A DNA stretch of 64,000 bases from a virus (Duplodnaviria > Caudoviricetes), in the IMG/VR virus record IMGVR_UViG_3300027860_000004, positions 32,001 to 96,000 of that record; one strand, written 5' to 3'. A program made the translations under genes and the position numbers. Below, piece by piece: positions 48,306 to 63,692 of this stretch (position 1 is its first letter; each line of letters begins with the position of its first letter). The notes below the pieces were generated by a model that was not told the origin of the DNA, made no database searches, and saw only the letters and a program-made list of their open reading frames with translations.

Positions 48306-48340
48306 AATAAAAGAGGGAGGACCTTTCGGCCCTCCCCTTT
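48306..48340 (-). terminator. terminator closing the cassette array
   Basis: GGGAGG-N10-CCTCCC hairpin with a U-rich tail on the minus strand. Confidence 0.7.
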
Positions 48341-48346
48341 GTGCTT

Positions 48347-49015: not shown

Positions 49016-49046
49016 GTTCTAATTATATCGAATTAGAAGGGTTATG

Positions 49047-49193
49047 TCAAACCGCTTGCGCGATATTGACGTAAGCGAAAGCAATCATTTTGCCTCGCGA
49101 ATTGTTGAGGGTCACTTGGAGGCACCCTTCGCCCCAGGGGGTAAAGGTGCAATAGTAGCCGCGCTTGATGGTGAAGTTCTTAAACGGTTCCAT
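49047..49193 (-). CDS. 48-aa protein MEPFKNFTIKRGYYC... (not in ORF track)
   Basis: TTGACA-17-TATAAT-6-ATG; TGA stop lies inside the next -35. Confidence 0.75.
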   Translation of the reverse strand: MEPFKNFTIKRGYYCTFTPWGEGCLQVTLNNSRGKMIAFAYVNIAQAV

Positions 49194-49229
49194 GTCCTGA
49201 TTATACAGAACAGAAGGGGTTATGTCAAA

Positions 49230-49297
49230 TACATTAAAAAGGGAATACCTCGCATTCTCACTTCCTTCGCCCTACGGCGGGAAGGGGACCAACCTTC
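49230..49297 (-). ncRNA. candidate ~70-nt small RNA
   Basis: consensus promoter 49304-49332, no start codon at +1, three hairpins then U5. Confidence 0.55.
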
Positions 49298-49328
49298 CCG
49301 CTTATTATAGAGTTAAAGGGTCGTTTTG

Positions 49329-49937
49329 TCAAATGGCCCCGCAGGGGTAATGGGTTGTCCTGGTCATCGGCGCGCACCCATAGGCGACCAGAACACCAGA
49401 GAAGGCCCGTTCTGAATCCGTTAGGCCATCCAAACCGATTTGGTGGGGTTTGCGGCGTCCTTTGTGTTGGCCCTCTTTGTAGGCCCGTTTTTGGGCCTTC
49501 TTGTCGATACGTTGGGCCGCAAGGTCCGCTTCCAATTCTGCAAGGTGGGCCGCTTCCTCCTGGTCCTCTTCGACGGGAGCGGTTTGGGGAGCGGGTTTGA
49601 CGGCGGACGCAATTTGACGAGAATACTTCGCCAATTTTCGGGCAACGAAGCGCGCTTGCTTCGGGGTTAAGGTTTGATACTTTTCGGAACCTTCCGCAAT
49701 ATCGGAGAGAATTTGCGCGTCGGTGCCATTGAACCCGGTTCCGTTATTATAGGCTGTCGCTTGGGCCATTTGTTCATCGGCCGTTTGGTTCGCATAAACG
49801 ACTCGGAGCGCGCGGTACGTTACCTTCCGTTGAAACGGGTTGATAAGGGTCGGTTCCGTTTGTGCAACTTCTTGCAGGAAGGATTTAATACCTTCTTGTG
49901 TTTTGAGGTCATGCACGGTCGTCGTCGTGTTATTCAT
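49329..49937 (-). CDS. conserved phage hypothetical protein
   Basis: QTADEQ..NG.GF...DA..L..LT.KQ..KY.RQ motif; leaderless promoter. Confidence 0.8.
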   Translation of the reverse strand: MNNTTTTVHDLKTQEGIKSFLQEVAQTEPTLINPFQRKVTYRALRVVYANQTADEQMAQATAYNNGTGFNGTDAQILSDIAEGSEKYQTLTPKQARFVARKLAKYSRQIASAVKPAPQTAPVEEDQEEAAHLAELEADLAAQRIDKKAQKRAYKEGQHKGRRKPHQIGLDGLTDSERAFSGVLVAYGCAPMTRTTHYPCGAI

Positions 49938-49974
49938 AACCTAATTATACATATTAGGTGGAGTTATTGCAAAT

Positions 49975-50295
49975 GAGGTTCCCCCAAAGTGACCAACCTC
50001 GGGAGAACCTCTTTGCGCCTAATCAATACACTTGAAGAGAGGTTTTGCTTTTCTTTCGTTTTTTCTTTCGTTAGTGTCTAACCTTGTCGGATTCGGCGCG
50101 CAGTTCGCCTATCTCATACATTCAAGGTTTAAGACTCTAGGTGATTCGCTTTCTCCTTTCTTTTGGAGGAGACTCGACAAGGGCCAAGGTTACTCAGGGG
50201 AGGTGAACGTATCCCGCTAGTTCCTTGTCTCTTTCAAACCCTTGTCGATATACGTCGTAGGTGTATTCCTACGTTCCGCTTTCTCCTACCCTTTA
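49975..50295 (-). ncRNA. candidate structured RNA in a ~320-nt gap without a convincing ORF
   Basis: nested inverted repeats 50167-50172/50282-50287, 50174-50183/50239-50248, 50256-50261/50268-50273. Confidence 0.45.
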
Positions 50296-50298
50296 AGT

Positions 50299-50568
50299 TT
50301 AATGCTTTTCGGGAGTTATGTCAAATGTCGAAGCGTAATACTTCTTTCCGACCGTATACGTTTCATAGGCGAGGCCATCGAAGTAATCGGCCAAGGAACA
50401 GAATCCTAGCCCGAAGTCTACAAGTAGCCAAAGGTCCGACTCCATGAAGTAAAGGCCCATACATTCGCAAATATCGCGCACGTACACTTCTCCGGTGAAG
50501 AGGAGACGGAGCGCATTGTTGATGAGAAGGAAGGTGATAACTTTGAAGAGGTCGCAGTAAAGTTTCAT
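50299..50568 (-). CDS. hypothetical protein (start moved to MKLYC)
   Basis: TTGACA-17-TATGCT-7-ATG. Confidence 0.7.
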   Translation of the reverse strand: MKLYCDLFKVITFLLINNALRLLFTGEVYVRDICECMGLYFMESDLWLLVDFGLGFCSLADYFDGLAYETYTVGKKYYASTFDITPEKH

Positions 50569-50611
50569 CTTCGTTAGCATACACCTTTCAATTTATTATG
50601 TCAAATGCCTT

Positions 50612-50776
50612 TTAGTCGGCAACCTTTACGCGAGCGTTGCGACGATGGTTCTTGTATTTGCCTTTCCCGCGCTTCTTATTGTAGGGGGAGTGCCAATCTT
50701 CGTGATACATCGTTCCGCGCTTGGTTTTGCGCGAGACTTCCAATTCGTAACGGAGGTTTGCTTCTCGAACATCCAT
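50612..50776 (-). CDS. 54-aa basic protein (not in ORF track)
   Basis: TTGCAT-17-TATACT-6-ATG; MDVREANL..NKKRGKGKYKNHRR. Confidence 0.75.
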   Translation of the reverse strand: MDVREANLRYELEVSRKTKRGTMYHEDWHSPYNKKRGKGKYKNHRRNARVKVAD

Positions 50777-50863
50777 GCGTTAAGTATAAACCTTCTTTTT
50801 AGTTAATGCAAACCAAGAGGAGGGGGTTCTATTTATTATAGTGCAAGAAAAGAGAAAGGACCC

Positions 50864-51175
50864 CTACCCTCGGGGGTCCGCTATTTCTCCCTTTTGGATG
50901 AGGTAGTCCGTCATTAGGTCCCCCGTAGACTTGAAGGGCGGAACATATGTCCGGTATGCTTCTCGACCCTCTTCCATCCAAGCGTCATAGCCATCTTGGT
51001 CGAGGATTGCATCGCATCGCATACAGGAGAGGAAACGGCCCTCATCGGTGGCATCATCACGCTTAATCGGTTTCTTCGGGTTGCCATACTCGAACTTTTC
51101 CATCGCGCAATCGACGCAGAGGCGTCTCTCGGATTGGTCGCTGTTGACTCGGTAGCCAACGATATCGTTTTCCAT
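50864..51175 (-). CDS. Zn-finger-like protein
   Basis: CVDC..CMRC; leaderless promoter. Confidence 0.75.
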   Translation of the reverse strand: MENDIVGYRVNSDQSERRLCVDCAMEKFEYGNPKKPIKRDDATDEGRFLSCMRCDAILDQDGYDAWMEEGREAYRTYVPPFKSTGDLMTDYLIQKGEIADPRG

Positions 51176-51211
51176 GTCCTAACTATACACCTAACTTTTG
51201 GTTATTGCAAG

Positions 51212-51463
51212 TTACCAATCGAATTTAGTGCAAACGGGGCCGCATTTTTCGCGACATTCTCCAGAAGCATAGTGGTGGCGAATATGTTCCGACCGTTTCG
51301 CTTCTCGTTGGGCCTCGCGTTGACGACGAACCTTCTCTGCTTGCGGGTCATAGGTCCGACCGAATCGGTTCACCGGGAGGGCACCGTTGGCGAGTTCATC
51401 ACACCGGAGGCATCCTTCAACCTTCTTACCGAAGTTCGGGCCGTGATTGTGTTGCGTTCCCAT
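51212..51463 (-). CDS. Cys/His-rich small protein
   Basis: H.H..CLRC..H..C..C..C; leaderless promoter. Confidence 0.75.
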   Translation of the reverse strand: MGTQHNHGPNFGKKVEGCLRCDELANGALPVNRFGRTYDPQAEKVRRQREAQREAKRSEHIRHHYASGECREKCGPVCTKFDW

Positions 51464-51489
51464 AACCCTATATTACATTTAATTAGGAG

Positions 51490-51765
51490 TTATGTCAAGG
51501 GATTTAGAAGTGCGAGAAGCCTTCTCAATTCCTTGATTTGTTCTTCTTTTGCTTCGATAGCCTTTTCCAGGGCCTTCTCGAACGCTAGGATGGCCTCTTC
51601 TCCATCGGTGTAGAAGTCTTTGCGCGCGACGGAGTAGACTGTTCCGCAGGCAATTCTCCGACCATTATCGCGAACCTGTGAAACAGTAACTTCCCGAAGG
51701 TAAGGAATACCTTCGTGGTTACTGTCGATAATGAAACCTTCGGTTCCTTTGCGAATATCTTCCAT
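51490..51765 (-). CDS. hypothetical protein
   Basis: leaderless promoter; ends TTG-ACA-TAA in the next -35. Confidence 0.75.
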   Translation of the reverse strand: MEDIRKGTEGFIIDSNHEGIPYLREVTVSQVRDNGRRIACGTVYSVARKDFYTDGEEAILAFEKALEKAIEAKEEQIKELRRLLALLNPLT

Positions 51766-51840
51766 CCTTTATATTTTAATTTAATCCCACAGTTATGTCA
51801 AGGAATAAGCCTATGATAAGTAGAAAGCAAAGAATGGAAT

Positions 51841-51873
51841 AGAGGAGGGCTTGAAAAGCGCCCTCCTCTTTTT
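51841..51873. terminator. terminator hairpin
   Basis: AGAGGAGGGC-N9-GCCCTCCTCT. Confidence 0.75.
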
Positions 51874-51875
51874 GG

Positions 51876-52055
51876 TTAATCACCTTCGGTTCCCGTTGCT
51901 TGCAGAAACCGTTCCCGGTTGAAACGGGGGTTCGTTATCGCCAACGAATCGGCGAAGGCAAGGGCCGCAGAACGTCGAGCGGAACGGAGACTTGCCGAAT
52001 GGGAAGGCATCCCTTTGATGGTGTCGGCAATCAGTTGAAAGTCTTTCTTCGTCAT
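51876..52055 (-). CDS. 59-aa conserved phage protein (not in ORF track)
   Basis: MTKKDFQLIA..NPRFNRERFL motif that I recognise from small phage proteins; TTGACA-17-TATAGT-6-ATG. Confidence 0.8.
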   Translation of the reverse strand: MTKKDFQLIADTIKGMPSHSASLRSARRSAALAFADSLAITNPRFNRERFLQATGTEGD

Positions 52056-52094
52056 GTGCTTACTATAAACCTATAACGAAGTTTTGTCAAAGAC

Positions 52095-52493
52095 TTACTT
52101 TCTCCGCTTGTTGTGATTTCCCCATCCCACAGTTTTCCAAGAATGAGGGAAAATTTCTTCAATGAACATAGCGACCTTAACAGGTATACCATACGAACGG
52201 TAGAGAGACTCCACTATGAGGGTTTGAAAGGTATCATGCCTTCCCCCTTCTCTTCCGTGATATACGTGGTCGATATAGTGCCCTAATTCGTGCAAGAGGG
52301 CCGCAGTATGTTCTGTCGTGGAACCATTTTTGCGGAAGTGTAGATAAATGATTTTGCTACGGGAAAAGTACCTTCCCGTATCTTTGTGGGCATCACGAAG
52401 CGAAGCAACTATGACCCGAGGAGCGGGTATGCCATAATCTTTACAGACTATGTTTGCATATTCTTGTGCCCATGTGGTCAAAGAAATGTTCAC
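52095..52493 (-). CDS. HExxH zincin-like metallopeptidase domain protein
   Basis: LLHELGH..H..H; GTG start 6 nt after TATACT. Confidence 0.7.
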   Translation of the reverse strand: MNISLTTWAQEYANIVCKDYGIPAPRVIVASLRDAHKDTGRYFSRSKIIYLHFRKNGSTTEHTAALLHELGHYIDHVYHGREGGRHDTFQTLIVESLYRSYGIPVKVAMFIEEIFPHSWKTVGWGNHNKRRK

Positions 52494-52601
52494 TTGATAA
52501 GTATAACCTTTTTTAAGTAGTTATGTCAAAGGCTTGTTCTCTTTAATTTATTATAGAGTAAAAGAAAGAGAGGCTCCCAGGGCAAGAACCTCCTCTTCGC
52601 T

Positions 52602-52859
52602 TTACTTTTTCTTGCCTTTCTTGGGTTCCATGTTGCGTTGACCCTTGGAGGCACGGATTTGTGCCCGCGTCATCTTCTTACGCTTGCGGGGTTGCTTGTC
52701 CACGGGGAGGGCCACAGGTGCCAGGATGGACAAACCCTGTTCCTCGGCGCGTTTATGCCCTTCCAGGACCCATTCGATATTGACCGGAACGGTGTTCGGA
52801 TTTTGCGAGAAGTTCTTCGCAGCGAAGGGGGCGAAGGTGGTCGTCATTTGCTGTTCCAT
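52602..52859 (-). CDS. protein with a highly basic C-terminal tail
   Basis: leaderless promoter. Confidence 0.7.
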   Translation of the reverse strand: MEQQMTTTFAPFAAKNFSQNPNTVPVNIEWVLEGHKRAEEQGLSILAPVALPVDKQPRKRKKMTRAQIRASKGQRNMEPKKGKKK

Positions 52860-52868
52860 GAATTAAGT

Positions 52869-53042
52869 TTATACCTTCTCGGAAGTTTTTGCAAGCGAAC
52901 CTTTGTTTTTATAGGCCGTTGTCCACTTGTGCCACTTGGTTCCAAAGTGTATCCCCATATGGTAGGAGACAACTCCACGATTTTGTTTCAACGCATGAGC
53001 ATAGCAGAAACGGTAAAGGCGTTGCTTCTGAAACTCTTTCAC
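52869..53042 (-). CDS. 57-aa basic protein (not in ORF track)
   Basis: TTGCTT-17-TAGAGT-6-GTG. Confidence 0.55.
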   Translation of the reverse strand: MKEFQKQRLYRFCYAHALKQNRGVVSYHMGIHFGTKWHKWTTAYKNKGSLAKTSEKV

Positions 53043-53139
53043 CTTCTTACTCTATCATAAACTGAAAGATAAAGCAAATATAGTTTTAAGATATTATAGC
53101 ATTAAAGGAAGAAAAGAACCCCCGGAGGGGGTCTAGTTG

Positions 53140-53166
53140 TTAGCCGAAAAGTTTGTCAAGTTTCAT
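53140..53166 (-). CDS. 8-codon minigene MKLDKLFG
   Basis: TTGCAA-17-TATAAT-6-ATG, then stop and terminator hairpin 53116-53133. Confidence 0.5.
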   Translation of the reverse strand: MKLDKLFG

Positions 53167-53201
53167 AACCTGATTATACCTTTTTGTTGATGTTATTGCA
53201 A

Positions 53202-53288
53202 ATGAGAGGAGTTTTCAATTAACGGGAAGAAAACTCTTAACAACTCCCGGCCTTTTCTGTGTCCCATTCGACCACGGGGGCCAACCTT
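53202..53288 (-). ncRNA. candidate ~90-nt structured RNA
   Basis: TTGACA-17-TATACT (53295-53323), no start codon at +1, GAGUUUUC/GAAAACUC stem. Confidence 0.5.
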
Positions 53289-53303
53289 AATTTAAGTATA
53301 AAA

Positions 53304-53483
53304 CTATTTGGTAGTTTTGTCAAACTTCCAGGTTGGCATGACTTCTTCGCGAGCCTGTTCTAGGCACAGGATGCACGTATATTCGTCCGCAACGATGCGA
53401 ACCGTATCCCGAGGGCGAAAGTCTGTTACCTTCGCACCACAACGAATTGATTCTGTTTTCTTGTCGAAAAGGTGGTTTAGCAT
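53304..53483 (-). CDS. small protein (H..CG..CxxC)
   Basis: ATG 53483 overlaps the upstream stop region. Confidence 0.55.
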   Translation of the reverse strand: MLNHLFDKKTESIRCGAKVTDFRPRDTVRIVADEYTCILCLEQAREEVMPTWKFDKTTK

Positions 53484-53752
53484 GAAAGTGCGAGAAGCCT
53501 TTCTTTCCAATCCGAGGAAAGTTTATCCCCTTCTGCTTTTTCTTGAAGAAGTTCGTACAGTTCGGGATAGGTAACATAATCCCGAGTATCACCTTCATCG
53601 GAGCAGAGAACCTCTACTGATTCACCTGCAACCGAATGAATCATGGGATTCGGTCCCATAAGAATTGAAACTTCCTTCCCATTCTCGAAAGAGATTACCG
53701 CATGACGTACACCACGCGAGGTCAAGAAGTGTGGTTTGATTTCAACTCTCAT
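53477..53752 (-). CDS. hypothetical protein
   Basis: TTGCAT-17-TATAAT-6-ATG. Confidence 0.75.
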   Translation of the reverse strand: MRVEIKPHFLTSRGVRHAVISFENGKEVSILMGPNPMIHSVAGESVEVLCSDEGDTRDYVTYPELYELLQEKAEGDKLSSDWKERLLALSC

Positions 53753-53838
53753 GCACTAATTATATCTTAAATTGAAAGATAATGCAAGAAGAAAAGAAGA
53801 AGCCTTGGGATGCTTGATTCCAAGGCTTTTCTAATATG

Positions 53839-54102
53839 TTATCCGTTATATTCGGAGAAACAACGCCCCTCGTCTAGTGCGACTTGATAGCGTTCGATGG
53901 ATTCGATACAACTTTCTAATTGTAGACGCGCCATCAGTAGGTCGCGATGAATCCCGCGATTATAGGATTTTTCGATGTTGACTTTATCAATAGTATCACA
54001 GGAATCATATCGCGCATGATACTCTTGAAGTTTGTTCTTCATCGCTTCTAATGAAGTGATTACATCAGAAGTGTTAAAGTTAGAAACCTTCGATTTAGCC
54101 AA
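53839..54102 (-). CDS. helical hypothetical protein (leadered exception)
   Basis: TTG start with AAGGAG SD; promoter 54160-54188. Confidence 0.65.
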   Translation of the reverse strand: MAKSKVSNFNTSDVITSLEAMKNKLQEYHARYDSCDTIDKVNIEKSYNRGIHRDLLMARLQLESCIESIERYQVALDEGRCFSEYNG

Positions 54103-54230
54103 AATTTTCTCCTTAGAAGAGTAAGCCCTAGAAGGGCAAAATTAGTTTTTACAAACCAAAACATATCAAATTACCAAAGTTATGTCAAATGTAGGTTGTT
54201 CTATATATAATAGTGTTGAAAATAAGAAGA

Positions 54231-54449
54231 AGGAGAGGTTAATTACTCCTCTCCTACTTTCCGCAAGGCGTCCCTTACTTGCCCGTTTTACATTCAGGTG
54301 GTGCCATACCTACACCATTCCGACAGGTGTTGTGGTTCTAAGTTTTTTAGTCCCTGGAAGTCAAACCCTAGACTTAAAAGCCTCCAGCGGGATTGTTTCC
54401 GTATCATCGCTTTTGTATCACGGTAAGGACGAACAATCAATTTCCTTAC
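54231..54449 (-). ncRNA. candidate ~200-nt structured transcript, or RBS-sequestered 48-aa ORF
   Basis: TTGACA-17-TATACT (54456-54484), several hairpins, terminator 54231-54255. Confidence 0.4.
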
Positions 54450-54549
54450 AACCAAAGTATATCAAAGCATTGAAGTTATGTCAAATGGAGTTTTATTCTA
54501 TGTATAATATACTTGAAAAGAGGAAGGGGAACCGGAGTTCCCCATTCTT

Positions 54550-54834
54550 CTACTTAATCCCGAGGCGGCGTTTGATTTCCGCTTTAACGAGGCGGGCTTG
54601 TTCGCCCTTGTAGGTGGTGGCGTTGGAGAGGAAATACATTCCAATGGACCGACCGGAGTCCGCACCATAGGCATCCTCGAATGAGGCCATATCGGACATG
54701 GCCTCTAAGTAGGGAACCGCACCGAAGTAGATTTTGGGCTTCCAGGACTTGCGAACGATATACGCAAGTTCGTTGACCGTCTTGCTTTTGAGTTCTTCCG
54801 CCGAAACGACGTTGTTGTTGTTGCTGATTTCCAT
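54550..54834 (-). CDS. conserved phage hypothetical protein
   Basis: W..YFGAVPYL.AM..YG.DS..YFLSNA..GE.AR.VK.E motif; leaderless promoter. Confidence 0.8.
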   Translation of the reverse strand: MEISNNNNVVSAEELKSKTVNELAYIVRKSWKPKIYFGAVPYLEAMSDMASFEDAYGADSGRSIGMYFLSNATTYKGEQARLVKAEIKRRLGIK

Positions 54835-54908
54835 AAACCTATTATACCTTTCGATAGAAGTTATTGCAAGAAAAAGAGCCTATCAGATTTCCGATAGACT
54901 CTCCAGAC

Positions 54909-55070
54909 TTAATCCTCTGTTTCGATTTCAAACATATCATTTCCTAGATAACGCACAGGCGTATCCGAAATGATATTGGCGACAATTTCCAAACCTTTTC
55001 CAGACGCCTCTCTAAGGGTTTCGGTTAATTGATTCAAAAGGTCTTGAAAAGAAATAACTTCTTTTGCCAT
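54909..55070 (-). CDS. 53-aa protein MAKEVISFQDLL... (not in ORF track)
   Basis: fills an intergenic gap; resembles 59772-60002. Confidence 0.55.
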   Translation of the reverse strand: MAKEVISFQDLLNQLTETLREASGKGLEIVANIISDTPVRYLGNDMFEIETED

Positions 55071-55120
55071 GTTTATATCATTCTCTCTTTCTTGAAGAAT
55101 CCCTTTAGACTTGTGAAAAT

Positions 55121-55378
55121 TTAATAATCTTCCGCTCGCCGCGCATCGGTTTCGTCTTGGTTGACGCCACTTGCAATAGTTCGACCAGAATCTTCGTCGT
55201 TGAACGTATCGACTTCGGTTCCATCCGGTAATTCGATATATTCACGAACGAGGCATTCATCATCAACGTCAACATCGACTGTTTCGATATTACTCACGTT
55301 GAGGGTAGAAGGAAAGAAGTCGCAGGAGGAGCGCACTTCGGTGCCACCATCCCATACCGAAACGTATGTTGCTTTCAT
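55121..55378 (-). CDS. acidic protein (start moved to MKATYVSVWDGG)
   Basis: GGAGA SD; second cistron. Confidence 0.7.
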   Translation of the reverse strand: MKATYVSVWDGGTEVRSSCDFFPSTLNVSNIETVDVDVDDECLVREYIELPDGTEVDTFNDEDSGRTIASGVNQDETDARRAEDY

Positions 55379-55382
55379 GTTT

Positions 55383-55583
55383 TTATTCTCCGAATCTATC
55401 GGGAACGATTTCCCACTTGCCGACTTTGTTTCCGTTGCTATCCAAGATATTCTCTTGGTCCCCGACGTATTGAGTGCTTTCATCGGAGGAATAACCCCGG
55501 AAAGAATTGGCGATAGCCGTCTTGACTTCACCGAAGGTTTGCATCGCATCGTTGTCGAGATTGATTTCGAGCGTCATCTTCAT
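55383..55583 (-). CDS. small phage protein
   Basis: I.LDNDA..I.D.NGNKVG.W; leaderless promoter. Confidence 0.75.
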   Translation of the reverse strand: MKMTLEINLDNDAMQTFGEVKTAIANSFRGYSSDESTQYVGDQENILDSNGNKVGKWEIVPDRFGE

Positions 55584-55620
55584 GCTTTAAGTTTAACAAC
55601 TTTCGGCAGTTATTGCAAAC

Positions 55621-55851
55621 CTAATGAACAATAGGAAAATGAATCGCCGGAACCCACGTTAATACCCACAGAACAAGCCAACAGGGGTAAACGAATGGGC
55701 AGAAAATACCGAATATCGCGGCGACGTACCAAGGAGCCCAAACTCCAAAAACCCAGAAGAGAATAAACTCTGCCAGGAGACAAGAAACGAGGTATATCAC
55801 CGAAAGGAATAATAATTGTATACCATAGAAAAACTTAATAAATTCATCCAT
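55621..55851 (-). CDS. small membrane protein
   Basis: very hydrophobic; TTGCAG-17-TAGAAT-6-ATG. Confidence 0.7.
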   Translation of the reverse strand: MDEFIKFFYGIQLLFLSVIYLVSCLLAEFILFWVFGVWAPWYVAAIFGIFCPFVYPCWLVLWVLTWVPAIHFPIVH

Positions 55852-55966
55852 ACTGTTATTCTACAACTTTGGGGAGGATTCTGCAAGGGTTCTGATTATT
55901 ATAGTTTAATAAAAAGAAAGGCAGGCTTTTTCTCCTTAGCCTGTCTCTCTTTTTTTGAGGAGGGTT

Positions 55967-56284
55967 TCAGTATTGAATCCGAACAGCCCCGCCGATGGTC
56001 AACTCTTTCCCTTGAACCGGATTCATCGCTTCCCGAACGAGGGAGAGGAGTTCCGGGAAGGAAGCGACCTTGGCCCCGTATTGGGTGTTAAGCATCCAAG
56101 TGCCGGGATGGCTTTTGGTCACGTTGTATAGTGCCAAAGCACTTTGTTTGTGAAGGGCGATGATTGCGTCATCTGATTGGAGGATGAAGTCGATATCCTC
56201 TTCTTTCGAGGGATAGATGACGAAGTTTCGCACCTTGCGGGCACCAGGGAGTTTGAAGTCAACGCTTGGAATGATGTTCTTCAT
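55967..56284 (-). CDS. hypothetical protein
   Basis: TTGACA-17-TATACT-6-ATG. Confidence 0.75.
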   Translation of the reverse strand: MKNIIPSVDFKLPGARKVRNFVIYPSKEEDIDFILQSDDAIIALHKQSALALYNVTKSHPGTWMLNTQYGAKVASFPELLSLVREAMNPVQGKELTIGGAVRIQY

Positions 56285-56319
56285 GTCCTAAGTATAAACT
56301 AATAACGAAGATTTGTCAA

Positions 56320-56544
56320 CTAATAGTCTTCTTCTTCGTCCTCGTTATCCTCCTCTAGGTTTACGTCGTCCATAACATCTTCGGTCGAATAGCCCAAGAC
56401 GTAAGCCTCTGGAAGAATTTCTTTCCCATTCCAAACTTCTACCTTATCAGAAATAAGGTGATTGAAGTAAAGGTGTTTAACATCTACTACTACTTCATCG
56501 GGAACGCTAACATTGACCCAGGTGACAAAGGTTAAAGTTTTCAT
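56320..56544 (-). CDS. acidic-tailed protein (start moved to MKTLTF)
   Basis: TTGCAA-17-TATGAT-6-ATG. Confidence 0.75.
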   Translation of the reverse strand: MKTLTFVTWVNVSVPDEVVVDVKHLYFNHLISDKVEVWNGKEILPEAYVLGYSTEDVMDDVNLEEDNEDEEEDY

Positions 56545-56649
56545 GTGCTTATCATACACCTTTCAGAAAGTTATTGCAAATAGGGTTATTCAATTTATTA
56601 TACACCAAAAGAGAGAAGAGAGAGCCGGAGCCCTCTACTTCAATCTTCC

Positions 56650-57072
56650 TTACACTTCCTTGACTTTGTACCCGAAGTTATTGAACACCTTAAGCACGTT
56701 CTCGGCGGTGCCGAGTCCGGGATTGCTATAATCACGTTGGCGGTTGTAAAGGGTTTGAGCCATAACGAGACTGATTTTGTTACGCGAAACCGTGAAGATG
56801 TAACCTTCGGTTTCGACAGCCTTCTTCGTTTCGGTCAAACCCATGCTGGTCAATTCGCGAAGGAATTTGATAGCCCCGATTTTATCGTAATCCCCATAAG
56901 GGCCGATAATGATAAACTTCAACGAAAGCGGGTCTTGCTTGCCTTCGATACGCAATTCGAGCAAACCCCGAAGGGCCATGTCGGTCACAATCGAAACGAA
57001 GGAGGTGCCATCCACCTTGTTATGGGGGATGAGGATTTCTTGGTCGCCTTGCTTCAAAACAATGTTCATCAT
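56650..57072 (-). CDS. protein with a ribosomal L7/L12 C-terminal-like domain
   Basis: DKIGAIKFLRELTSMGLTETKKAVE..AENVLKVFNNFGYKV. Confidence 0.7.
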   Translation of the reverse strand: MMNIVLKQGDQEILIPHNKVDGTSFVSIVTDMALRGLLELRIEGKQDPLSLKFIIIGPYGDYDKIGAIKFLRELTSMGLTETKKAVETEGYIFTVSRNKISLVMAQTLYNRQRDYSNPGLGTAENVLKVFNNFGYKVKEV

Positions 57073-57117
57073 GTTTTTATTCTACCTTTTTCTTGAAGTT
57101 ATTGCAAGAAAGAATTA

Positions 57118-57303
57118 TTAGGGAACGTAGAAAACAGGTGAACCATAATCAGGATTGTATTCCTGAACAGTTTTCCATTCGATGAGATTTTGTTCTTCCA
57201 AAGCCCGAATGGCTTGAAGTGCAGCAACGCGAGTCACACCCGGCAAGAAATGAATGACCGCCCCAACTTGCCGAGGTTCTTTGTTCTCATTGTTATTGTT
57301 CAT
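57118..57303 (-). CDS. small phage protein
   Basis: ends EYNPDYGSPVFYVP; leaderless promoter. Confidence 0.7.
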   Translation of the reverse strand: MNNNNENKEPRQVGAVIHFLPGVTRVAALQAIRALEEQNLIEWKTVQEYNPDYGSPVFYVP

Positions 57304-57391
57304 ACTTCTATTATCAACCTTTAGGGTAGTTTTGTCAAAAATTATTCAATTTATTATAGCATAAGAAAAGAAAGAGGGCCAAAGCCCCCTT

Positions 57392-57595
57392 TTAGTCCGG
57401 GTCGTACTCTTCCCCAGGCGCTTCGTCGTGCATATAGCGCATGACTTCAACATCTTCGACCTCCGCGAATTTGATTCGAGGAGTCTGCTTATATGCGGCG
57501 TCCCGAATCTCATCAATATCGGGGTTCGCATTATCCAGATTAACTTGATATTTGCGAACCTCCGTAACAGTTTCTGTTAGAACGAACAGGGGCAT
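57392..57595 (-). CDS. small acidic protein (start MPLFVL)
   Basis: AGAGGAGG SD. Confidence 0.65.
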   Translation of the reverse strand: MPLFVLTETVTEVRKYQVNLDNANPDIDEIRDAAYKQTPRIKFAEVEDVEVMRYMHDEAPGEEYDPD

Positions 57596-57777
57596 CCGTA
57601 GTCCTCCTCTTCTTCCCATTCTTCATAGTCGATATTCTCGTCAAAGAAGTCCTCTTCTTCGACAAATTCGCCATTCGCTTCGGAAGCGAGGCAGTTTTCC
57701 TCGAAACGGATGGCATCCCCGAAGGGCATCGAGTCGTAGGGGTCGTAAGATTCGTAACCGCTGTAATCTTCATCCAT
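57577..57777 (-). CDS. extremely acidic 66-aa protein, DNA-mimic candidate
   Basis: D/E- and aromatic-rich; TTGCAG-17-TATAAT-6-ATG. Confidence 0.7.
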   Translation of the reverse strand: MDEDYSGYESYDPYDSMPFGDAIRFEENCLASEANGEFVEEEDFFDENIDYEEWEEEEDYGCPCSF

Positions 57778-57799
57778 AAACTAATTATAGACCTTCTCT

Positions 57800-57982
57800 T
57801 TAGTTACTGCAAGCGGAGAGAGGATACCAACGGCCACCATCTTTCCCTCCGCTTGCATGATAGCGAGGCAACTGCGGGACGCAGAAGATTTCCCCTTCCC
57901 GCTTCTTGGTAACGTAGCAAGGAACGTCTTTCAAGCGACCACGACGAGGTGTAGCGGCCTGAAGAAGGTTGGCATCTTTCAA
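57800..57982 (-). CDS. small hypothetical protein
   Basis: overlaps the upstream stop; ends in the next promoter. Confidence 0.5.
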   Translation of the reverse strand: MKDANLLQAATPRRGRLKDVPCYVTKKREGEIFCVPQLPRYHASGGKDGGRWYPLSACSN

Positions 57983-58230
57983 CTAATCCACACCTTGTAG
58001 GCATCGGCAAGGTCGTAAAGATAGTCGAGCGAATCATTAAAGTCATCTACCGACCCATTTACAGATGACTTGTAAAAATCGTTTGATAAGTCCGTAGTGT
58101 CAAGAACATTGAAAGGTGAATTTACTCGAAGCCTTTCCATGATTTGATTTGCAGCGGCCTTGACTGAATCTTCATCTTCAGAAGTGTCAAGAAGGTCTTT
58201 GATTTGGAATTGAGACAGCCATTTACCCAT
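57979..58230 (-). CDS. acidic protein (start MGKW)
   Basis: GGAGA SD; DF...LD.LYDLAD...VWI. Confidence 0.7.
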   Translation of the reverse strand: MGKWLSQFQIKDLLDTSEDEDSVKAAANQIMERLRVNSPFNVLDTTDLSNDFYKSSVNGSVDDFNDSLDYLYDLADAYKVWIS

Positions 58231-58231
58231 A

Positions 58232-58408
58232 TTATTTCTCCAGCAAAGCGACAAGGAACCCATGTTGATAGATGAAGGGTAAATTATCGAAGAGAGCCTT
58301 CTGGTTCTTCGTTGCCAGGGAGAGAGCAAACTCCTTCGCCTTGTTATAGGCGCTCAACTCCACAAAGGAGGAGGTCAAAAGTTCTTTCGCTTCATCTTTC
58401 GTCATCAT
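58232..58408 (-). CDS. 58-aa protein MMTKDEAKELL... (not in ORF track)
   Basis: TTGACA-17-TATACT-6-ATG. Confidence 0.7.
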   Translation of the reverse strand: MMTKDEAKELLTSSFVELSAYNKAKEFALSLATKNQKALFDNLPFIYQHGFLVALLEK

Positions 58409-58434
58409 GCTCTAAGTATAAACTTATTGCGGAG

Positions 58435-58650
58435 TTATGTCAAAGGAAGCGGAATTGTAGACTCGAACCAAACTTCTTTGTCGTAATCATTATACGTGAT
58501 TTTAACATGGCTGTATTCTACGGCATGGCGATGAATAAGATTTTTCGCAAGATTCAATGCGCCTTGCTTTGAGTCCCGAGTCCAGAATTGGACTTGTGCG
58601 GGATATTCACGTAGGGTTGCAATGATGACAAATGGTTCGGTATACTTCAT
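58435..58650 (-). CDS. hypothetical protein
   Basis: TGGACA-17-TATATT-6-ATG; ends TTG-ACA-TAA. Confidence 0.7.
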   Translation of the reverse strand: MKYTEPFVIIATLREYPAQVQFWTRDSKQGALNLAKNLIHRHAVEYSHVKITYNDYDKEVWFESTIPLPLT

Positions 58651-58665
58651 GCTATGAATATAAAC

Positions 58666-58935
58666 CTATTCAGGAGTTTTGTCCAACAATGGGAGGAAAG
58701 AAACGATATTCTTTCTTAATTTATCATAAACAACTCGAACAGTCTGACCCTGCCATTCGAGCGTATGAATAGTGACCCGATTTGATTGGGTCACAACATT
58801 TTGACTTCGACCGGACATAATATGACGCTTTAATTCTATCATATTTTGATGGTTGAAGTCAATTCCGTAACGCTCCAATGCCCTCCGCTTGGCATGTTTA
58901 CGTTGGCACTTCCCTTTGCTAACTCGCTTTCCCAT
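58666..58935 (-). CDS. basic protein, possible RelE/DUF4258-like fold
   Basis: HAKRRALERY..VVYDK..IVSF. Confidence 0.5.
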   Translation of the reverse strand: MGKRVSKGKCQRKHAKRRALERYGIDFNHQNMIELKRHIMSGRSQNVVTQSNRVTIHTLEWQGQTVRVVYDKLRKNIVSFLPLLDKTPE

Positions 58936-58957
58936 TATTGTTGTTCCCTTAAATAAT

Positions 58958-59045
58958 TGGTGGGGAAGGTGGGACTCGAACCCACATGAGATTTCTCCCG
59001 TCGCGTTTTAAGCGCGATGCTTCTGACCAATTTAGCCACTTCCCC
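58958..59045 (-). tRNA. trnL: tRNA-Leu(UAA)
   Basis: GGGGAAG/CTTCCCC acceptor, TCGCG-CTTAAAA-CGCGA anticodon arm, long variable arm, GTGGG-TTCGAGT-CCCAC T arm, encoded CCA. Confidence 0.95.
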
Positions 59046-59448
59046 GAATAGATGGATGACTATAATATCCTCCGCATTTTCGAGAACAATAATTTTCTTT
59101 TGTTACTTTATTTTTTTGTCTGTCTTGGCGCTCACGTTGACTAACTTCTGCTTGAAACTCTTTTCCGCAAGGGCAAGTATATGTTTTATATTTTCTTTGC
59201 CTTCCGTGGTCAACCCAAACGGATTTTCTTCTATTTTCTATTCCGCTCAAAACTTGCAAGTTCGACAGTTCATTGTTTCTTATGTTTCCATCCTTGTGGT
59301 CAACTTCTTCCCAATCCTCAAGTTTCCTTCCTAATGCTTCTTCCATGAGGTAACGAGGATAAGAAATAGTTATCAGGGATTTATCGTCTAATTGCTTGAC
59401 AATTCTGCTTCTGCCGTCCTTGGCAGTATATGGTCCGTATATCTTCAT
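59032..59448 (-). CDS. HNH homing-endonuclease-like protein
   Basis: RY.ME..LGR.L...EEVDHKDG...NN..SNLQV, C-terminal CPCGK..YCSRKC; AAGAGG SD. Confidence 0.85.
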   Translation of the reverse strand: MKIYGPYTAKDGRSRIVKQLDDKSLITISYPRYLMEEALGRKLEDWEEVDHKDGNIRNNELSNLQVLSGIENRRKSVWVDHGRQRKYKTYTCPCGKEFQAEVSQRERQDRQKNKVTKENYCSRKCGGYYSHPSIRGSG

Positions 59449-59485
59449 GGCTAACAACCTCTTTGTTAACCATTATATTAAAAAG

Positions 59486-59728
59486 TTATTTGGTTCGACC
59501 AGCAATAGCCTCTACATAATTTTCAAGGCAACGACGAGTATGATATTCTGGATTTTTGTTATTAAATTGACTGTAGTAATTCAACAGCCCTTGCTTTTGA
59601 CTGTCACCTGGTTTAACTGTAACAGTAAACTCGTTAAACACAAATGAAACCGGATTGCCTAGCCGGTTTGCAAACTCGCGAGCATATTCAACTGCTCCGT
59701 TAATATGATGAATGCTGTTTATTGACAT
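59486..59728 (-). CDS. hypothetical protein
   Basis: TTGCAA-17-TAGAAT-6-ATG. Confidence 0.75.
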   Translation of the reverse strand: MSINSIHHINGAVEYAREFANRLGNPVSFVFNEFTVTVKPGDSQKQGLLNYYSQFNNKNPEYHTRRCLENYVEAIAGRTK

Positions 59729-59771
59729 ACTCCTATTCTATCAACTTTCTTTAGTTATTGCAAAAAAATGA

Positions 59772-60002
59772 CTAAAGAGGACCAGAACCTAAAAAGTAGT
59801 CCTCTTCCTCTTCTTCATCTTCTTCTACGGCGAAGGTGGCACTCAGTCCTGGATGACTTGTGCTAATAGTGTTATAGCGTTCTTCGGTAAGCCGAACCTC
59901 GCGTTCATAGATAGCAGAAGCGATGCGCGCAAGGCTACGTCCGTCGCTATGTTCGATACGTTGCACCAAGTCACGAATGAGGTCCTCGCGTTCAATCTTC
60001 AT
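59772..60002 (-). CDS. acidic-tailed protein
   Basis: TTGCAA-17-TAAAAT-6-ATG. Confidence 0.75.
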   Translation of the reverse strand: MKIEREDLIRDLVQRIEHSDGRSLARIASAIYEREVRLTEERYNTISTSHPGLSATFAVEEDEEEEEDYFLGSGPL

Positions 60003-60087
60003 GACCTTATTTTATCAACTAATTGGAGTTCTTGCAACTCATACTATTTATTATATAACTAAAAGAAAAAAGGAGGACGAACCTCCT

Positions 60088-60384
60088 TTAGACAGGGAAT
60101 CGAGGAAGAGGTTTTTCGGTTTGAGGGCTTGCTTTGAGAAACTCTACGTGCCCCTTTAGGTCCTCTGCTGCCTTCAAGTAATCACCACGCTTATACTTGC
60201 GGCCGGTGTATTCTGAAGCCATCTTGAGCATTTGAACAGGTCCAACGCCTCGGGTCGGAATCATCTTCAACTTTGCATAGCCGATGAGACTTTGTGCCAG
60301 GATAGCGGCCCGGAAAATATCCACATCCCCTTTGGCAAGGACTCGGCCGTTGTGGGTGCGTTCGGCAAATGATTGATTATCCAT
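60088..60384 (-). CDS. phage hypothetical protein
   Basis: TG.KYKRG.Y..A..DL; TTGCAA-17-TAATAT-6-ATG. Confidence 0.75.
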   Translation of the reverse strand: MDNQSFAERTHNGRVLAKGDVDIFRAAILAQSLIGYAKLKMIPTRGVGPVQMLKMASEYTGRKYKRGDYLKAAEDLKGHVEFLKASPQTEKPLPRFPV

Positions 60385-60449
60385 GACTTTATATTATCAA
60401 CTTTAAGAAGATATTGCAAGTCATTTTATTATTTATTATATCATTATTC

Positions 60450-60672
60450 CACAACGAGGACCGGCGCTAGGCTCGGCCCTCCTTGGGATAACGCGCTAGG
60501 TCCCGGATTTGAACCGGAAACGCCACCTATTTGCTTAGGTCCGAACCTAGATGAAGTAAGAGGATGCTCGCACAACTTTTATATGCTGCCGGTCAAGAGA
60601 GTCTTATCTCTCACGCTTTGTTTAGGCGGTCCTACTTGTCCACCTACCTAGAACCTTAGTTTGTCACTCTGT
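60450..60672 (-). ncRNA. tRNA/tmRNA-like structured RNA
   Basis: TTGACA-17-TATAAT (60679-60707), CUAGGU/ACCUAG closing stem, UCCGG-UUCAAAU-CCGGG T arm. Confidence 0.6.
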
Positions 60673-60713
60673 GATTAGATTATATCTTCTTGAAGAAGTT
60701 TTGTCAAAACCCT

Positions 60714-60902
60714 TTAGTTAGAAGGGTCAACAGATTGGAGTCTAAAGGACCGTGCGGCTTCACGCATTTCGGCAAGCATATTCTCTGCTTCACGATAGTC
60801 GCTAGGTCCTGGCGCATCCTTTGTATGGTCGCCAAGGATAACTTCAAGGGCAGCAATACGGTTCGGCGTGACCTTTACTGTTGCTTGGTTAGAAGTATCC
60901 AT
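60714..60902 (-). CDS. small hypothetical protein
   Basis: second cistron. Confidence 0.55.
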   Translation of the reverse strand: MDTSNQATVKVTPNRIAALEVILGDHTKDAPGPSDYREAENMLAEMREAARSFRLQSVDPSN

Positions 60903-60907
60903 TATTT

Positions 60908-61327
60908 TTAGATGGTTGCCTTGAAAGAAACCAGGTTGTAAGAGTAGGGCGAGTTCTTGACCAACTCTTCATATTGCGGACGAGTAAGGATACCCGCAGC
61001 AAGAAACTTTTTGGCGACCTCTACATCGGCCGTAAGTTTCTCGGGAACCTCCACAAAGTTAATCTTGAAGTTCCCCCGCTTGTTACGGAAGGTGCCGGAA
61101 ATGAAGGTTTCTTTGTTCTCACCCAGGGCCTTGCGAATGGCCTTAATCTTGGGCTTGAGGTCTTTCTCCAACTTCGTTTCCGCAGCGGATTTCAGTTCGG
61201 AGGTAAGGATATAGTCCCGAAGAACGGCAACGATTTCGGTTTGCGTATCTTCGGTAAGTGCGGTGACACCTTCTGCGGTCACGGGCACGATGACTGTTTG
61301 GGCGTTTTCGAGAAGTGTGTTGCTCAT
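60908..61327 (-). CDS. hypothetical protein
   Basis: TTGCAA-17-TATAGT-6-ATG. Confidence 0.8.
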   Translation of the reverse strand: MSNTLLENAQTVIVPVTAEGVTALTEDTQTEIVAVLRDYILTSELKSAAETKLEKDLKPKIKAIRKALGENKETFISGTFRNKRGNFKINFVEVPEKLTADVEVAKKFLAAGILTRPQYEELVKNSPYSYNLVSFKATI

Positions 61328-61397
61328 GTATAAACTATAGACCTTTCAGAGAGTTATTGCAAGCAGCGGTTGTACCCGCTTTGCCTACGGTGAAGCG

Positions 61398-61426
61398 AGT
61401 ATAACATATAAAAAACAAAAAGTCAA
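61398..61426 (-). promoter_or_regulatory. extra tandem promoter without an adjacent start codon
   Basis: TTGACT-17-TATACT followed by an AGCGG/CCGCT hairpin. Confidence 0.6.
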
Positions 61427-61473
61427 GTGCATTCTATTTATTATAGCGTTGAATAAAGAAAAAGGAGGATTTT

Positions 61474-61686
61474 TTATTTCCCCTTCTTCTCCTGTTGAAG
61501 AAAATAGTTAATGACTTCTGCTACCCGATACTTATGATTGACCCAGGTAATAGTCTCTCTGAAGATAATTTGATACCCTGCGGGGTATTCTACGATGACA
61601 AGGTTTGCATTATCAGTAGGTAAACCTGCTTTAGCAAACTCTTGCTTGATATAGTTTTTTGAGAATTTTACTTGACTAGGATTCAT
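61474..61686 (-). CDS. hypothetical protein (start MNPSQV)
   Basis: overlaps the upstream stop. Confidence 0.55.
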   Translation of the reverse strand: MNPSQVKFSKNYIKQEFAKAGLPTDNANLVIVEYPAGYQIIFRETITWVNHKYRVAEVINYFLQQEKKGK

Positions 61687-61909
61687 TGACAGTAGAAGGT
61701 AGAACGATTCGACCATCCCCCACGGCTTCGACCAGCGTGGCAAACATTTCGTTAGATGCCTTCTGTCGGTCAAGGTGACGCTGCCACGATTCCTGAAAGG
61801 CTTTGCTTTCTGCATCGCGATAACCTTTTCGATACTCAGCATCGAGCATTTCATCGAGTTCCGATTGCTTCATCATAACAATCGGGTTTTTGTCTGTGTG
61901 AATAAGCAT
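61676..61909 (-). CDS. hypothetical protein
   Basis: TTGACT-17-TATAAA-6-ATG. Confidence 0.7.
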   Translation of the reverse strand: MLIHTDKNPIVMMKQSELDEMLDAEYRKGYRDAESKAFQESWQRHLDRQKASNEMFATLVEAVGDGRIVLPSTVNES

Positions 61910-61935
61910 ATTCTATTTATAGACCTTTCAAGGAG

Positions 61936-62304
61936 TTAAGTCAAATCTCCATCATGCCCGACAGTAAACATGACAATCTCAAACATATCACGGGCTTTGA
62001 TTGCTTTAATTGCTTCGCGTTCTCCTGTGTCGAACCAAATGCAAACCGGAAAAGTTTGTGGAACCTCCATCAAACAATCAAGTAATTCCCCAACGGTCAA
62101 GGCTTGGCTTTCATCGGCCGGTTCTTCATCATAGAGGGGAGGTTCAATCGACTGAGCATTGATTGTAACCATTGACAAAGACGGCGAACCCTCTACAGTT
62201 TCATAAGAAACATTTGTAAAGAAAGAACCATCATCCACCCGGCATTCAAACTCCGGGTTAGTGTAGAGATTGCGAAGCGTTTCTCGCAGTTCGCTAACTT
62301 TCAT
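61936..62304 (-). CDS. acidic protein (start MKVSEL)
   Basis: TAATG coupling; internal repeat MKVSEL/LTVGEL. Confidence 0.7.
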   Translation of the reverse strand: MKVSELRETLRNLYTNPEFECRVDDGSFFTNVSYETVEGSPSLSMVTINAQSIEPPLYDEEPADESQALTVGELLDCLMEVPQTFPVCIWFDTGEREAIKAIKARDMFEIVMFTVGHDGDLT

Positions 62305-62495
62305 TAGCCTTGCAGAACCCCCAAGGTGCCGCAGCCCTTGCAAATATCATCCGGTTCTGGGGGATGACCAAAGTCCTCGAAAAACATTTCGATTGCTTCT
62401 GGGTCATAGTCAAGAGTGATTGTGTTAATCACTTGTCCCTGGTTTTCGCATCCCTTGGTTTCACAAACCACAGAGAAAGTCACTTCTTCTAGCAT
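62304..62495 (-). CDS. small Zn-ribbon-like acidic protein
   Basis: C...GC.N..CKGCG; TTGCAA-17-TAGAAT-6-ATG. Confidence 0.7.
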   Translation of the reverse strand: MLEEVTFSVVCETKGCENQGQVINTITLDYDPEAIEMFFEDFGHPPEPDDICKGCGTLGVLQG

Positions 62496-62521
62496 GACCT
62501 TATTCTATCAATCTTAAAGAG

Positions 62522-62713
62522 TTATTGCAAATAAGGAGGCGGAGTTAGTCCCCGCTTGTGAAGCAATCCCAATTCGTTTAGAACCGCAATAGCAGTAGCC
62601 TGCATCCGATACTCATTCCAATCCTTAAAATCAAGTCGATTCTGCGGGGTGCTATTGCGAATGGCTCTCGCAGTTCGTTCGATAAGGGCAACTTCTTCAT
62701 CGGTATAATCCAT
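62522..62713 (-). CDS. hypothetical protein
   Basis: TTGCAA-17-TATAAT-9-ATG; ends TTG-CAA-TAA. Confidence 0.7.
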   Translation of the reverse strand: MDYTDEEVALIERTARAIRNSTPQNRLDFKDWNEYRMQATAIAVLNELGLLHKRGLTPPPYLQ

Positions 62714-62798
62714 AGTCAAAACATTATATCAAGAATTAGAAGTTATTGCAAGGGTTGTTATTCAATTTATAATAGAGTAATAGTAAAAAAAGAGGCCC

Positions 62799-63293: not shown

Positions 63294-63329
63294 GAATTAA
63301 GTTTATCATCTTCAATCAGTTAAATCAAA

Positions 63330-63485: not shown

Positions 63486-63486
63486 G

Positions 63487-63687: not shown

Positions 63688-63692
63688 GATTA

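Follow-up and report, generated by a model that had tools for sequence, protein, structure and literature searches.

Promoter-supplied stop codons in a predicted leaderless early-gene array of an uncultured tailed phage are probably for the most part a consequence of packing

When a promoter lies so close to the gene upstream of it that it supplies that gene's stop codon, is the overlap a function of the promoter or a result of tight packing? The question is raised by IMG/VR virus record IMGVR_UViG_3300027860_000004, one contig of 130,281 bp from an uncultured tailed phage, of which bases 32,001–96,000 were analysed (64,000 nt; hereafter the window). From 48.3 to 64 kb of the window every gene is on the minus strand, and a sigma70-type promoter repeat recurs between the genes. 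A first-pass annotation had proposed that each repeat provides both a start and a stop, such that any DNA caught between two repeats becomes an expressed gene, and it named plain genome compaction as the alternative. The promoter-supplied stops are real, but they appear to be mostly a consequence of packing. The reading that we favour, and hold to be fairly probable, is that the region is a compacted array of predicted leaderless early-gene cassettes resembling the promoter-early stem-loops (PeSLs) of T4-type phages, with the in-promoter stops as a by-product and the repeats as borders where gene gain and loss take place; the gene-shuffling part of this reading is partly supported.

A weight matrix made from 31 strict sites was run over the whole genome, where it matches at 10 bits or more at 77 sites on the minus strand and 7 on the plus strand, and at 16 bits or more at 59 and none respectively. 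The 75 minus-strand sites that score at least 11 lie between 49,050 and 94,328 of the window with a mean spacing of 612 bp, and 36 promoters were counted within 49,050–62,530. The promoters themselves are clearly beyond chance, since a consensus scan of 48,000–64,000 finds 65 promoter-like sites against 24.0 +/- 5.5 in shuffled sequences. Their consensus is TTG(C/A)(A/C)A-(T/A)AAC-T, 12 bases, TAnnnT, 6 bases and ATG. The −35 hexamer is TTGCAA in 30 of the 75 promoters and TTGACA in 26, and the four bases 3′ of it are TAAC in 43 and AAAC in 18; the AAC at +7 to +9 (offsets are counted from the first T of the −35 hexamer) is nearly as invariant as the hexamers and was not demanded by the seed pattern. 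Exact runs common to different promoters reach 15–21 nt and are centred on the −35. A palindromic operator around TTGCAA was considered and dropped, as TAAC has no mirror image upstream of the −35. When the exact promoter pattern was searched for elsewhere, viral contigs gave one match per locus in the best 80 of 114 loci, and genome contigs gave at least 120 loci, all single among the matches listed and mostly from AT-rich Firmicutes; neither search provided a lead to a host or a relative.

The ATG begins exactly 6 nt after the −10 in 46 of the 75 promoters and 7 nt after it in three. At the 46 this puts the A of the ATG at the predicted +1 and leaves no space for a leader or a Shine-Dalgarno (SD) sequence, and the mRNAs of these genes are predicted to be leaderless. 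The distance from −35 to ATG is 35 nt, and promoter, upstream stop and downstream start are all contained within about 38 nt; the base before the ATG is predominantly a pyrimidine (C 0.59, T 0.35 in the 31-site matrix). The proposal is supported in that the repeat is a promoter set with the ATG at the predicted first transcribed base at these 46. Another 17 promoters have no ATG 4–10 nt after the −10 and drive SD-led genes or stretches free of open reading frames (ORFs), which contradicts the stronger claim that any DNA between two repeats becomes a gene.

All ten stop codons that the first-pass annotation had placed within promoters are present at exactly those positions (Table 1), and the extended −35 does close two reading frames, by TGA and TAA, with both stops in use. 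One overlap had been missed: the TAA of the gene 50299–50568 lies inside the −10 that belongs to the promoter at 50324 (offset +23). Between 49,050 and 62,530 the upstream stop falls in the extended −35 at six promoters and in the spacer or −10 at five, with a doubtful sixth case of the latter kind (a 35-aa GTG ORF at 51801). At 53304 and 57800 there are rival ORFs that end in the motif instead (53320–53598 and 57804–58046), but their abundance of Ser, Arg and Leu gives them the look of off-frame translations, whereas the ORFs chosen originally look like proteins. The C-termini encoded by the motif are ..LT, ..LQ, ..LH and ..FD. Over the whole genome, 15 well-called genes end in the extended −35 and six in the spacer or −10. 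By automatic calls at all 75 promoters, the upstream stop is at least 41 nt upstream of the −35 at 32 and 1–40 nt upstream at 16, so that 48 genes stop before the motif; the other 27 end inside the promoter, at positions 0–9 (16), in the spacer (7), in the −10 (3) or beyond it (1).

Could these overlaps be chance coincidences, with no cause beyond an AT-rich motif? The frames of the 27 entering ORFs are nearly even (11:7:9), as such an explanation would have it. The share of ORFs reaching the −35 that end at positions 0–9 was compared with random frames at the same promoters, and with all automatic calls the departure is small (16/27 against 11.33 expected, P=0.028). With six doubtful calls of 35–60 aa dropped (four with TTG starts, one with GTG and one with an ATG lacking an SD), however, the curated ORFs give 15/21 against 9.33 expected (P=0.0039), and this, together with the ending of 27 of the 75 upstream genes inside a promoter and an array that is itself far beyond chance, makes mere coincidence very improbable. 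Since the frames are nearly even, the excess must arise from a match between motif variant and frame.

An excess over random frames would also be expected if the repeat were a selected, self-delimiting cassette border, combining a two-frame stop, a promoter and a start, that feeds gene capture and the birth of ORFan genes, and the use as stops of all three TAA-at-+5 variants described below favours the same explanation. Set against it is the finding that TAA at +6 is just as common where it is unused, being present in 15/27 overlapped promoters and in 30/48 without an entering gene (Fisher P=0.63). Moreover, only 38 of the 75 promoters close all three frames before the ATG, 48 of the upstream genes never reach the motif, and 17 promoters have no ATG 4–10 nt after the −10. 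Because TAA at +6 is no commoner where it is used, we take the stop to be neither selected nor designed as a function of the repeat, and we consider the selected border quite unlikely, although further points on both sides emerge from the proteins and the relative considered below.

Plain compaction fits these observations best, with 48 of 75 genes stopping short of the motif and the TAA as frequent where idle. Each small gene or short group of genes would be served by a separate near-consensus promoter that the primary sigma factor of the host would recognise, set such that the A of the ATG would be the first transcribed base. Where the intergenic gap is shorter than 35 nt the promoter would be pushed into the end of the upstream gene; an ORF entering in the frame of the TGA or of the usual TAA would end there, and one in the third frame would run on into the spacer or the −10. 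The stop within the motif would then be a by-product, since compaction and the base composition of the motif together produce it. Mutational economy may help, as a TGA or TAA that is present beforehand makes up part of a −35 and may seed one.

Carried further, this last point becomes an explanation of its own, in which promoters arose in place on existing stop codons and the seeding ran from gene end to promoter. Of the 10 extended −35 positions, 3–4 are supplied in advance by a TGA, or by a TAA with C next to it, and point mutation would be easiest there. Such an origin would account for the modest link between frame and motif variant and for the off-consensus hexamers TTGACT and TTGATT that carry TAA at +5, and the spacers resemble one another only weakly (mean identity 4.7 of 13 positions), as independent origins would explain better than the copying of cassettes. 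Some spacers, however, have runs of the TAACTTCAAAAA type in common that extend up to 21 nt, and a second motif, TATAATAAAT, recurs upstream of about 17 promoters; both look copied, or under constraints other than sigma binding. Origin in place is not exclusive of compaction, and as the principal account it seems unlikely.

Homologues of the array proteins allow the gene ends to be viewed from outside the array. Protein J (69243–69785, 180 aa, ending ..SGVEATTGLQ*) has 1,603 homologues at E<=0.001 among 1,638 candidates, and in an alignment of 30 of the best 120 listed the conserved core ends at SGVEA and is followed by unconserved tails of 0 to about 30 residues. The five-residue tail of J, TTGLQ, which includes the motif-coded LQ, is within the range of tail lengths in the family, and thus the LQ looks like part of a variable tail trimmed against the promoter, not an addition. 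At the other end, Met1 of J aligns with the invariant MGREVR start of the family; the start codon therefore belongs to the gene and not to the repeat, which counts against a selected border. The family is marked by the start MGREVRMVP, which is strongly conserved, and by an EGTPISP motif; its named members include Mesorhizobium and Parahaliea proteins, and J itself matches nothing in Pfam or PHROGs. For protein B there are 1,570 homologue matches, nearly all of the best 150 of which cover its conserved domain (about residues 36–125 of 202), and its C-terminal part is lineage-specific. In contrast to these, the search with protein E (61936–62304) found just itself (1 of 7 candidates), and that with protein C (51490–51765) found itself and one relative of 90% identity that also ends ..LNPLT. 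The lack of homologues of E and C outside this phage and a close relative is a point in favour of a border that feeds gene birth. Overall the array mixes members of large families with genes confined to the lineage. In the 222-aa gene, 16 of 19 differences from a relative listed between 48,359 and 48,560 are on third codon positions, which indicates purifying selection in the one gene whose differences could be read and is again at odds with a border that delivers newborn genes. The suggestion of de novo gene birth in the first-pass annotation thus finds no support, given about 1,600 homologues each for J and B and the substitution pattern of the 222-aa gene, and no sign of an origin in non-coding DNA was seen. 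Its expectation that the motif-coded C-termini are non-homologous additions is half right: the LQ is not conserved outside the array, but it is no addition. As for the converse, that homologues elsewhere keep the same C-termini, the picture is mixed, in that distant J homologues lack the LQ and the close relative of protein C retains ..NPLT.

Two runs labelled moss metagenome contain the sequence, one of them being its probable source, and a third (X3) contains a diverged relative, represented by two contigs of 7,079 and 7,945 nt with roughly 91% identity to the window; in the longest aligned piece (2,889 nt) there are 68 gaps and 264 other letters. At the site of a nearly empty cassette (53117–53201) the relative carries an insert of 264 letters between 53,135 and 53,149, and because of these additional letters a gene seems to have been lost from within that cassette. 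Conversely, one of its contigs joins 54148 directly to 54446, skipping a whole promoter-to-promoter unit, with 6 nt (TTACAA, plus strand) that fit both sides of the joint. A skip of about 502 nt (54,876–55,377) removes two genes and has an edge 6 nt upstream of the −35 at 54,869; 58,912–59,727 is mostly missing (about 700 nt, with a tRNA-Leu and two genes) and has an edge at a leaderless ATG; and in a skip of 198 nt (60,709–60,906) six letters replace a 62-aa gene, with an edge 1 nt upstream of the −35 at 60,707. The remaining joints consist of stretches that are alike in length but diverged beyond alignment, two of which begin 0 and 3 nt from a −35 (62,751 and 57,341). With one low-support joint (56,343 to 57,601; depth 2, side 21) left out of the count, 7 of 24 joint ends are within 6 nt of a promoter edge, against 1.5 expected (6.3% of positions qualify; P=5e-4), and 4 of 24 are at the upstream edge alone (P=0.006).

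The repeats thus serve as borders for the gain and loss of gene units between relatives; the indels are observed, and we infer recombination at the repeats as their cause. This gain and loss at promoter edges is also to be expected of a selected border, but not that the 62-aa gene missing from the relative should lack its own promoter. What survives of the proposed platform for gene capture is that units come and go at the repeats; that the stop is a selected function of such a platform does not. A bolder version, in which the 38-nt junction, with its two-frame stop, promoter and start at +1, is a minimal leaderless self-delimiting border, recombination across its shared 15–21-nt core moves genes in and out, anything between two copies is expressed as a protein of its own and the array is a nursery for captured genes and ORFans in a lineage unrelated to T4, seems improbable. 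We also note that the 74-aa protein encoded by 56320–56544 has an acidic repetitive C-terminal tail, inside which the relative has an 87-nt skip. One contig in run X2, at a depth of 27.4 much above that of the phage there (about 4–7), touches the window just at 54486–54503 and 62514–62531, beside the promoters at 54484 and 62530. Between lie 26 other letters, and loose ends begin at the same places; the contig may come from another phage in the sample with similar promoters.

Several observations weigh against compaction of a cassette array as set out here. The excess of motif-closed frames, though modest (P=0.004 for the curated ORFs, P=0.03 for all calls), is present, and TAA at +5 occurs in three promoters (TTGACTAAAC twice and TTGATTAAAC) and is used as the stop in all three, one of the ORFs (45 aa) being doubtful; together these suggest some adjustment between motif variant and frame that purely passive compaction does not predict. 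TGA at +1 is likewise somewhat commoner where a gene enters (16/27 overlapped promoters against 18/48 others, P=0.09). The promoters and leaderless starts are predicted from consensus and geometry alone, and no RNA run containing this stretch was found. As to gain and loss, the comparison is with a single relative, made through read-alignment tables alone; the breakpoints at promoter edges could come in part from alignments restarting at the conserved promoters, and at several joints the intervening sequence is marked 'not known'.

The junctions differ in what accompanies the promoter. There are 36 terminator-like sites in 48,000–64,000 against 16.9 +/- 4.3 in shuffled sequences, and about 17 junctions have a terminator hairpin, a T-run and the TATAATAAAT motif upstream of the −35, with hairpins at about 17–20 of the 75; most promoters thus have no hairpin. 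The second motif, (C)TATAATAAAT(T/A)GAA on the minus strand, lies just 3′ of the terminator T-runs and 19–40 nt upstream of the next −35, a placement seen in about 17 of its 24 minus-strand matches; examples are at 50841, 52556, 56603, 57359, 60056, 60441, 61446 and 62775, with others beyond 64,000. Candidates for its role are an UP-like element and a −10-only promoter of another temporal class. We also considered, and dropped, a plus-strand promoter that would have the palindromic TTGCAA in common with this motif, since the distance from motif to next −35 mostly varies (19–40 nt). Among the promoter-driven stretches without a convincing ORF, the fold z-scores are −2.81 (49978–50289), −1.75 (54210–54449) and −2.09 (60440–60672), and none of these three has an Rfam match; the promoter at 49295–49332 drives a non-coding stretch of roughly 65 nt that ends in a hairpin and T-run. 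A T-arm-like GGTTCAAATCC hairpin is visible by eye in 60440–60672 and was not called by ARAGORN.

Among the products of the genome are a portal, a large terminase and an RNA ligase. The best known match of the portal is to Bacillus phage G (38.6% identity), followed by Mycobacterium phage Myrna-like phages, and there are no T4-type phages among the organisms listed for the 232 records that match it; T4 core genes were not searched for. The G+C content is 29–37% over most of the genome and 41–50% in genome 80–112 kb, which starts at 48 kb of the window; the window's 48.3–64 kb is the high-G+C end of a 45-kb early-gene region. The G+C content of third codon positions (GC3) in array genes is 0.39–0.56 at 48–80 kb and 0.27 at 80–96 kb of the window, against 0.15 in 35 long ORFs outside the array, and UUA makes up 8–12% of Leu codons in the array against 58% outside. 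This contrast fits a G+C-rich host, with early genes either tuned to the host tRNAs or acquired from G+C-rich DNA, and the foreign origin that the GC3 values of 0.39–0.56 would fit is one that a capturing border would also imply.

Database searches provided little more. Array proteins matched almost nothing in Pfam and PHROGs, the exceptions being a match of protein B to PHROG 21015 (unknown function) and a weak Peptidase_M78 match of 52095–52493 that is below its cut-off. Phage records gave no match to 49,000–62,800 by megablast, nor to the 222-aa protein by tblastn. No relative was found among viral contigs queried for related loci with protein B and with the portal, and a search of metagenome contigs with the 140-aa protein 56650–57072 gave 110 pattern matches of which none was confirmed, although searches of this kind may leave out the window's own record or one very near it. 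In Rfam only the tRNA was above threshold, weak matches with E 0.16–0.64 being taken as chance. Elsewhere in the window, 4536–8033 encodes a 1,165-aa protein with a weak ParB-like N-terminal match (E about 1e-5), and the structural region has many large ORFs without any PHROG match.

Table 1. Promoters, genes and other features of the array (window coordinates)
Feature	Coordinates	Strand	Remarks
Promoter TTGACATAAC-N13-TATAAT-N6-ATG	49013..49050	−	Serves 222-aa gene 48347–49015; TGA 49047–49049 ends gene 49047–49193
48-aa gene, predicted leaderless	49047..49193	−	Stop TGA at +1, inside TTGACA of next −35
Promoter TTGACAAAAC...TATAAT	49295..49332	−	No ATG at +1; its TGA ends gene 49329–49937
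Protein B gene, 202 aa	49329..49937	−	Stop TGA at +1, inside TTGACA
Promoter	50287..50324	−	Drives roughly 310-nt non-coding stretch 49978–50289
Promoter TTGACATAAC	51461..51498	−	TTG-ACA-TAA (+6) is Leu-Thr-stop of protein C gene 51490–51765, 91 aa
Promoter TTGCAAAAAC...TAAACT	52857..52894	−	Gene 52869–53042 stops at +23, in −10
Nearly empty cassette	53117..53201	−	Promoter at 53201, ATG, 8-codon ORF, terminator hairpin 53117–53133
Promoter TTGACAAAAC	53286..53323	−	Gene 53304–53483 crosses −35 (..FDKTTK*) and stops in spacer, +17
SD-led gene (example)	53839–54102	−	Behind promoter at 54188
Promoter-to-promoter unit, 297 nt	54149..54445	−	Promoters 54484 to 54188; mostly non-coding; skipped in X3 relative
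Promoter TTGCAGTAAC	57775..57812	−	Gene 57800–57982 stops in spacer, +10
Promoter TTGACATAAC	58406..58443	−	TTG-ACA-TAA (+6) ends gene 58435–58650, 71 aa (..PLPLT*)
Promoter TGGACAAAAC...TATATT	58648..58685	−	Gene 58666–58935 stops in spacer, +17
tRNA-Leu (anticodon TAA)	58958..59045	−	Inside array; stretch mostly missing from relative's contig
62-aa gene without own promoter	60714–60902	−	Between stop codon and −35 at 60707
Promoter TTGACTTAAC...TATAAA	61907..61944	−	TTG-ACT-TAA (+6) ends protein E gene 61936–62304, 122 aa
Promoter TTGCAATAAC...TAGAAT	62493..62530	−	TTG-CAA-TAA (+6) ends gene 62522–62713, 63 aa (..PYLQ*)
Composite junction (example)	62714..62811	−	Hairpin 62791–62811, T-run, CTATTATAAAT motif, −35 at 62751, −10, ATG at 62713
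Promoter-driven stretches without convincing ORF	49978–50289, 54210–54449, 60440–60672, 49235–49297, 53205–53288	−	

The closest described counterparts are the PeSLs, which are presented as mobile regulatory cassettes of T4-type phages in which the stop codon of the upstream gene comes first, a sigma70 promoter with a stem-loop follows and the downstream start comes last, and which are said to mediate the shuffling of ORFans and to give mini-circles when adjacent cassettes recombine (Arbiol et al. 2010, PMC2839356; Comeau et al. 2014, PMC4122927). Like PeSLs as so described, the array is a variable region of small genes, mostly of unknown function, in which a strong predicted sigma70-like early promoter recurs dozens of times, with a composite motif that runs from upstream stop codon to downstream start codon, terminator-like stem-loops at part of the junctions, and indels between close relatives at the repeats (here in one relative, with 7 of 24 ends at promoter edges and the 297-nt unit missing). 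Unlike them, it has no Shine-Dalgarno sequence where the ATG is at the predicted +1 (46 of 75 promoters), its stop is inside the −35 or the TAAC extension and not in an upstream AT-rich tract, and its hairpins, present at a minority of junctions, are upstream of the −35 and not inside the promoter; nor is the phage visibly T4-like by its portal, unlike the described PeSL hosts.

The leaderless layout has a parallel of its own in Deinococcus-Thermus, in which the −10 of leaderless genes is reported to adjoin the ORF, 6–7 nt from the start codon (PMC12340547). At 46 of the 75 promoters (6 nt) and at three more (7 nt) the array likewise has its −10 close to the ATG, with no SD, a pyrimidine at −1 and an A at +1. 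Sevostyanova et al., in 2007, are said to have described about 43 early −10/−35 promoters in the low-G+C genome of Thermus phage phiYS40, which also has tRNA genes; its leaderless transcripts, reportedly, are the middle and late ones. Unlike the leaderless layout of Deinococcus-Thermus and phiYS40, that of the array includes a full extended −35, and no sequence relation to phiYS40 was found by megablast, by tblastn against phage records or among the portal matches. Phage morons are autonomous units of promoter, gene and terminator, and the array resembles them in having single genes with their own promoter, and often their own terminator, between other genes and with a composition unlike that of the rest of the genome; morons, however, are isolated additions in a late operon, whereas this is a continuous 45-kb array and probably the whole early programme. 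Literature searches on leaderless early promoters in phages yielded no description of this exact layout, which is not proof of absence.

The region shows the degree of compression that is possible in phage early transcription units, and it widens the PeSL picture, in which repeated early promoters are borders for gene shuffling, to take in a predicted leaderless layout and a phage lineage other than the T4-type ones described. Annotators should note that gene-calling programs that look for ribosome-binding sites will place the starts of these genes wrongly, and that the promoter determines brief C-terminal endings such as LT, LQ, LH and FD. Should the cassette behaviour prove to hold in further relatives, arrays of this kind would be tractable for studying how phages acquire and test accessory genes.

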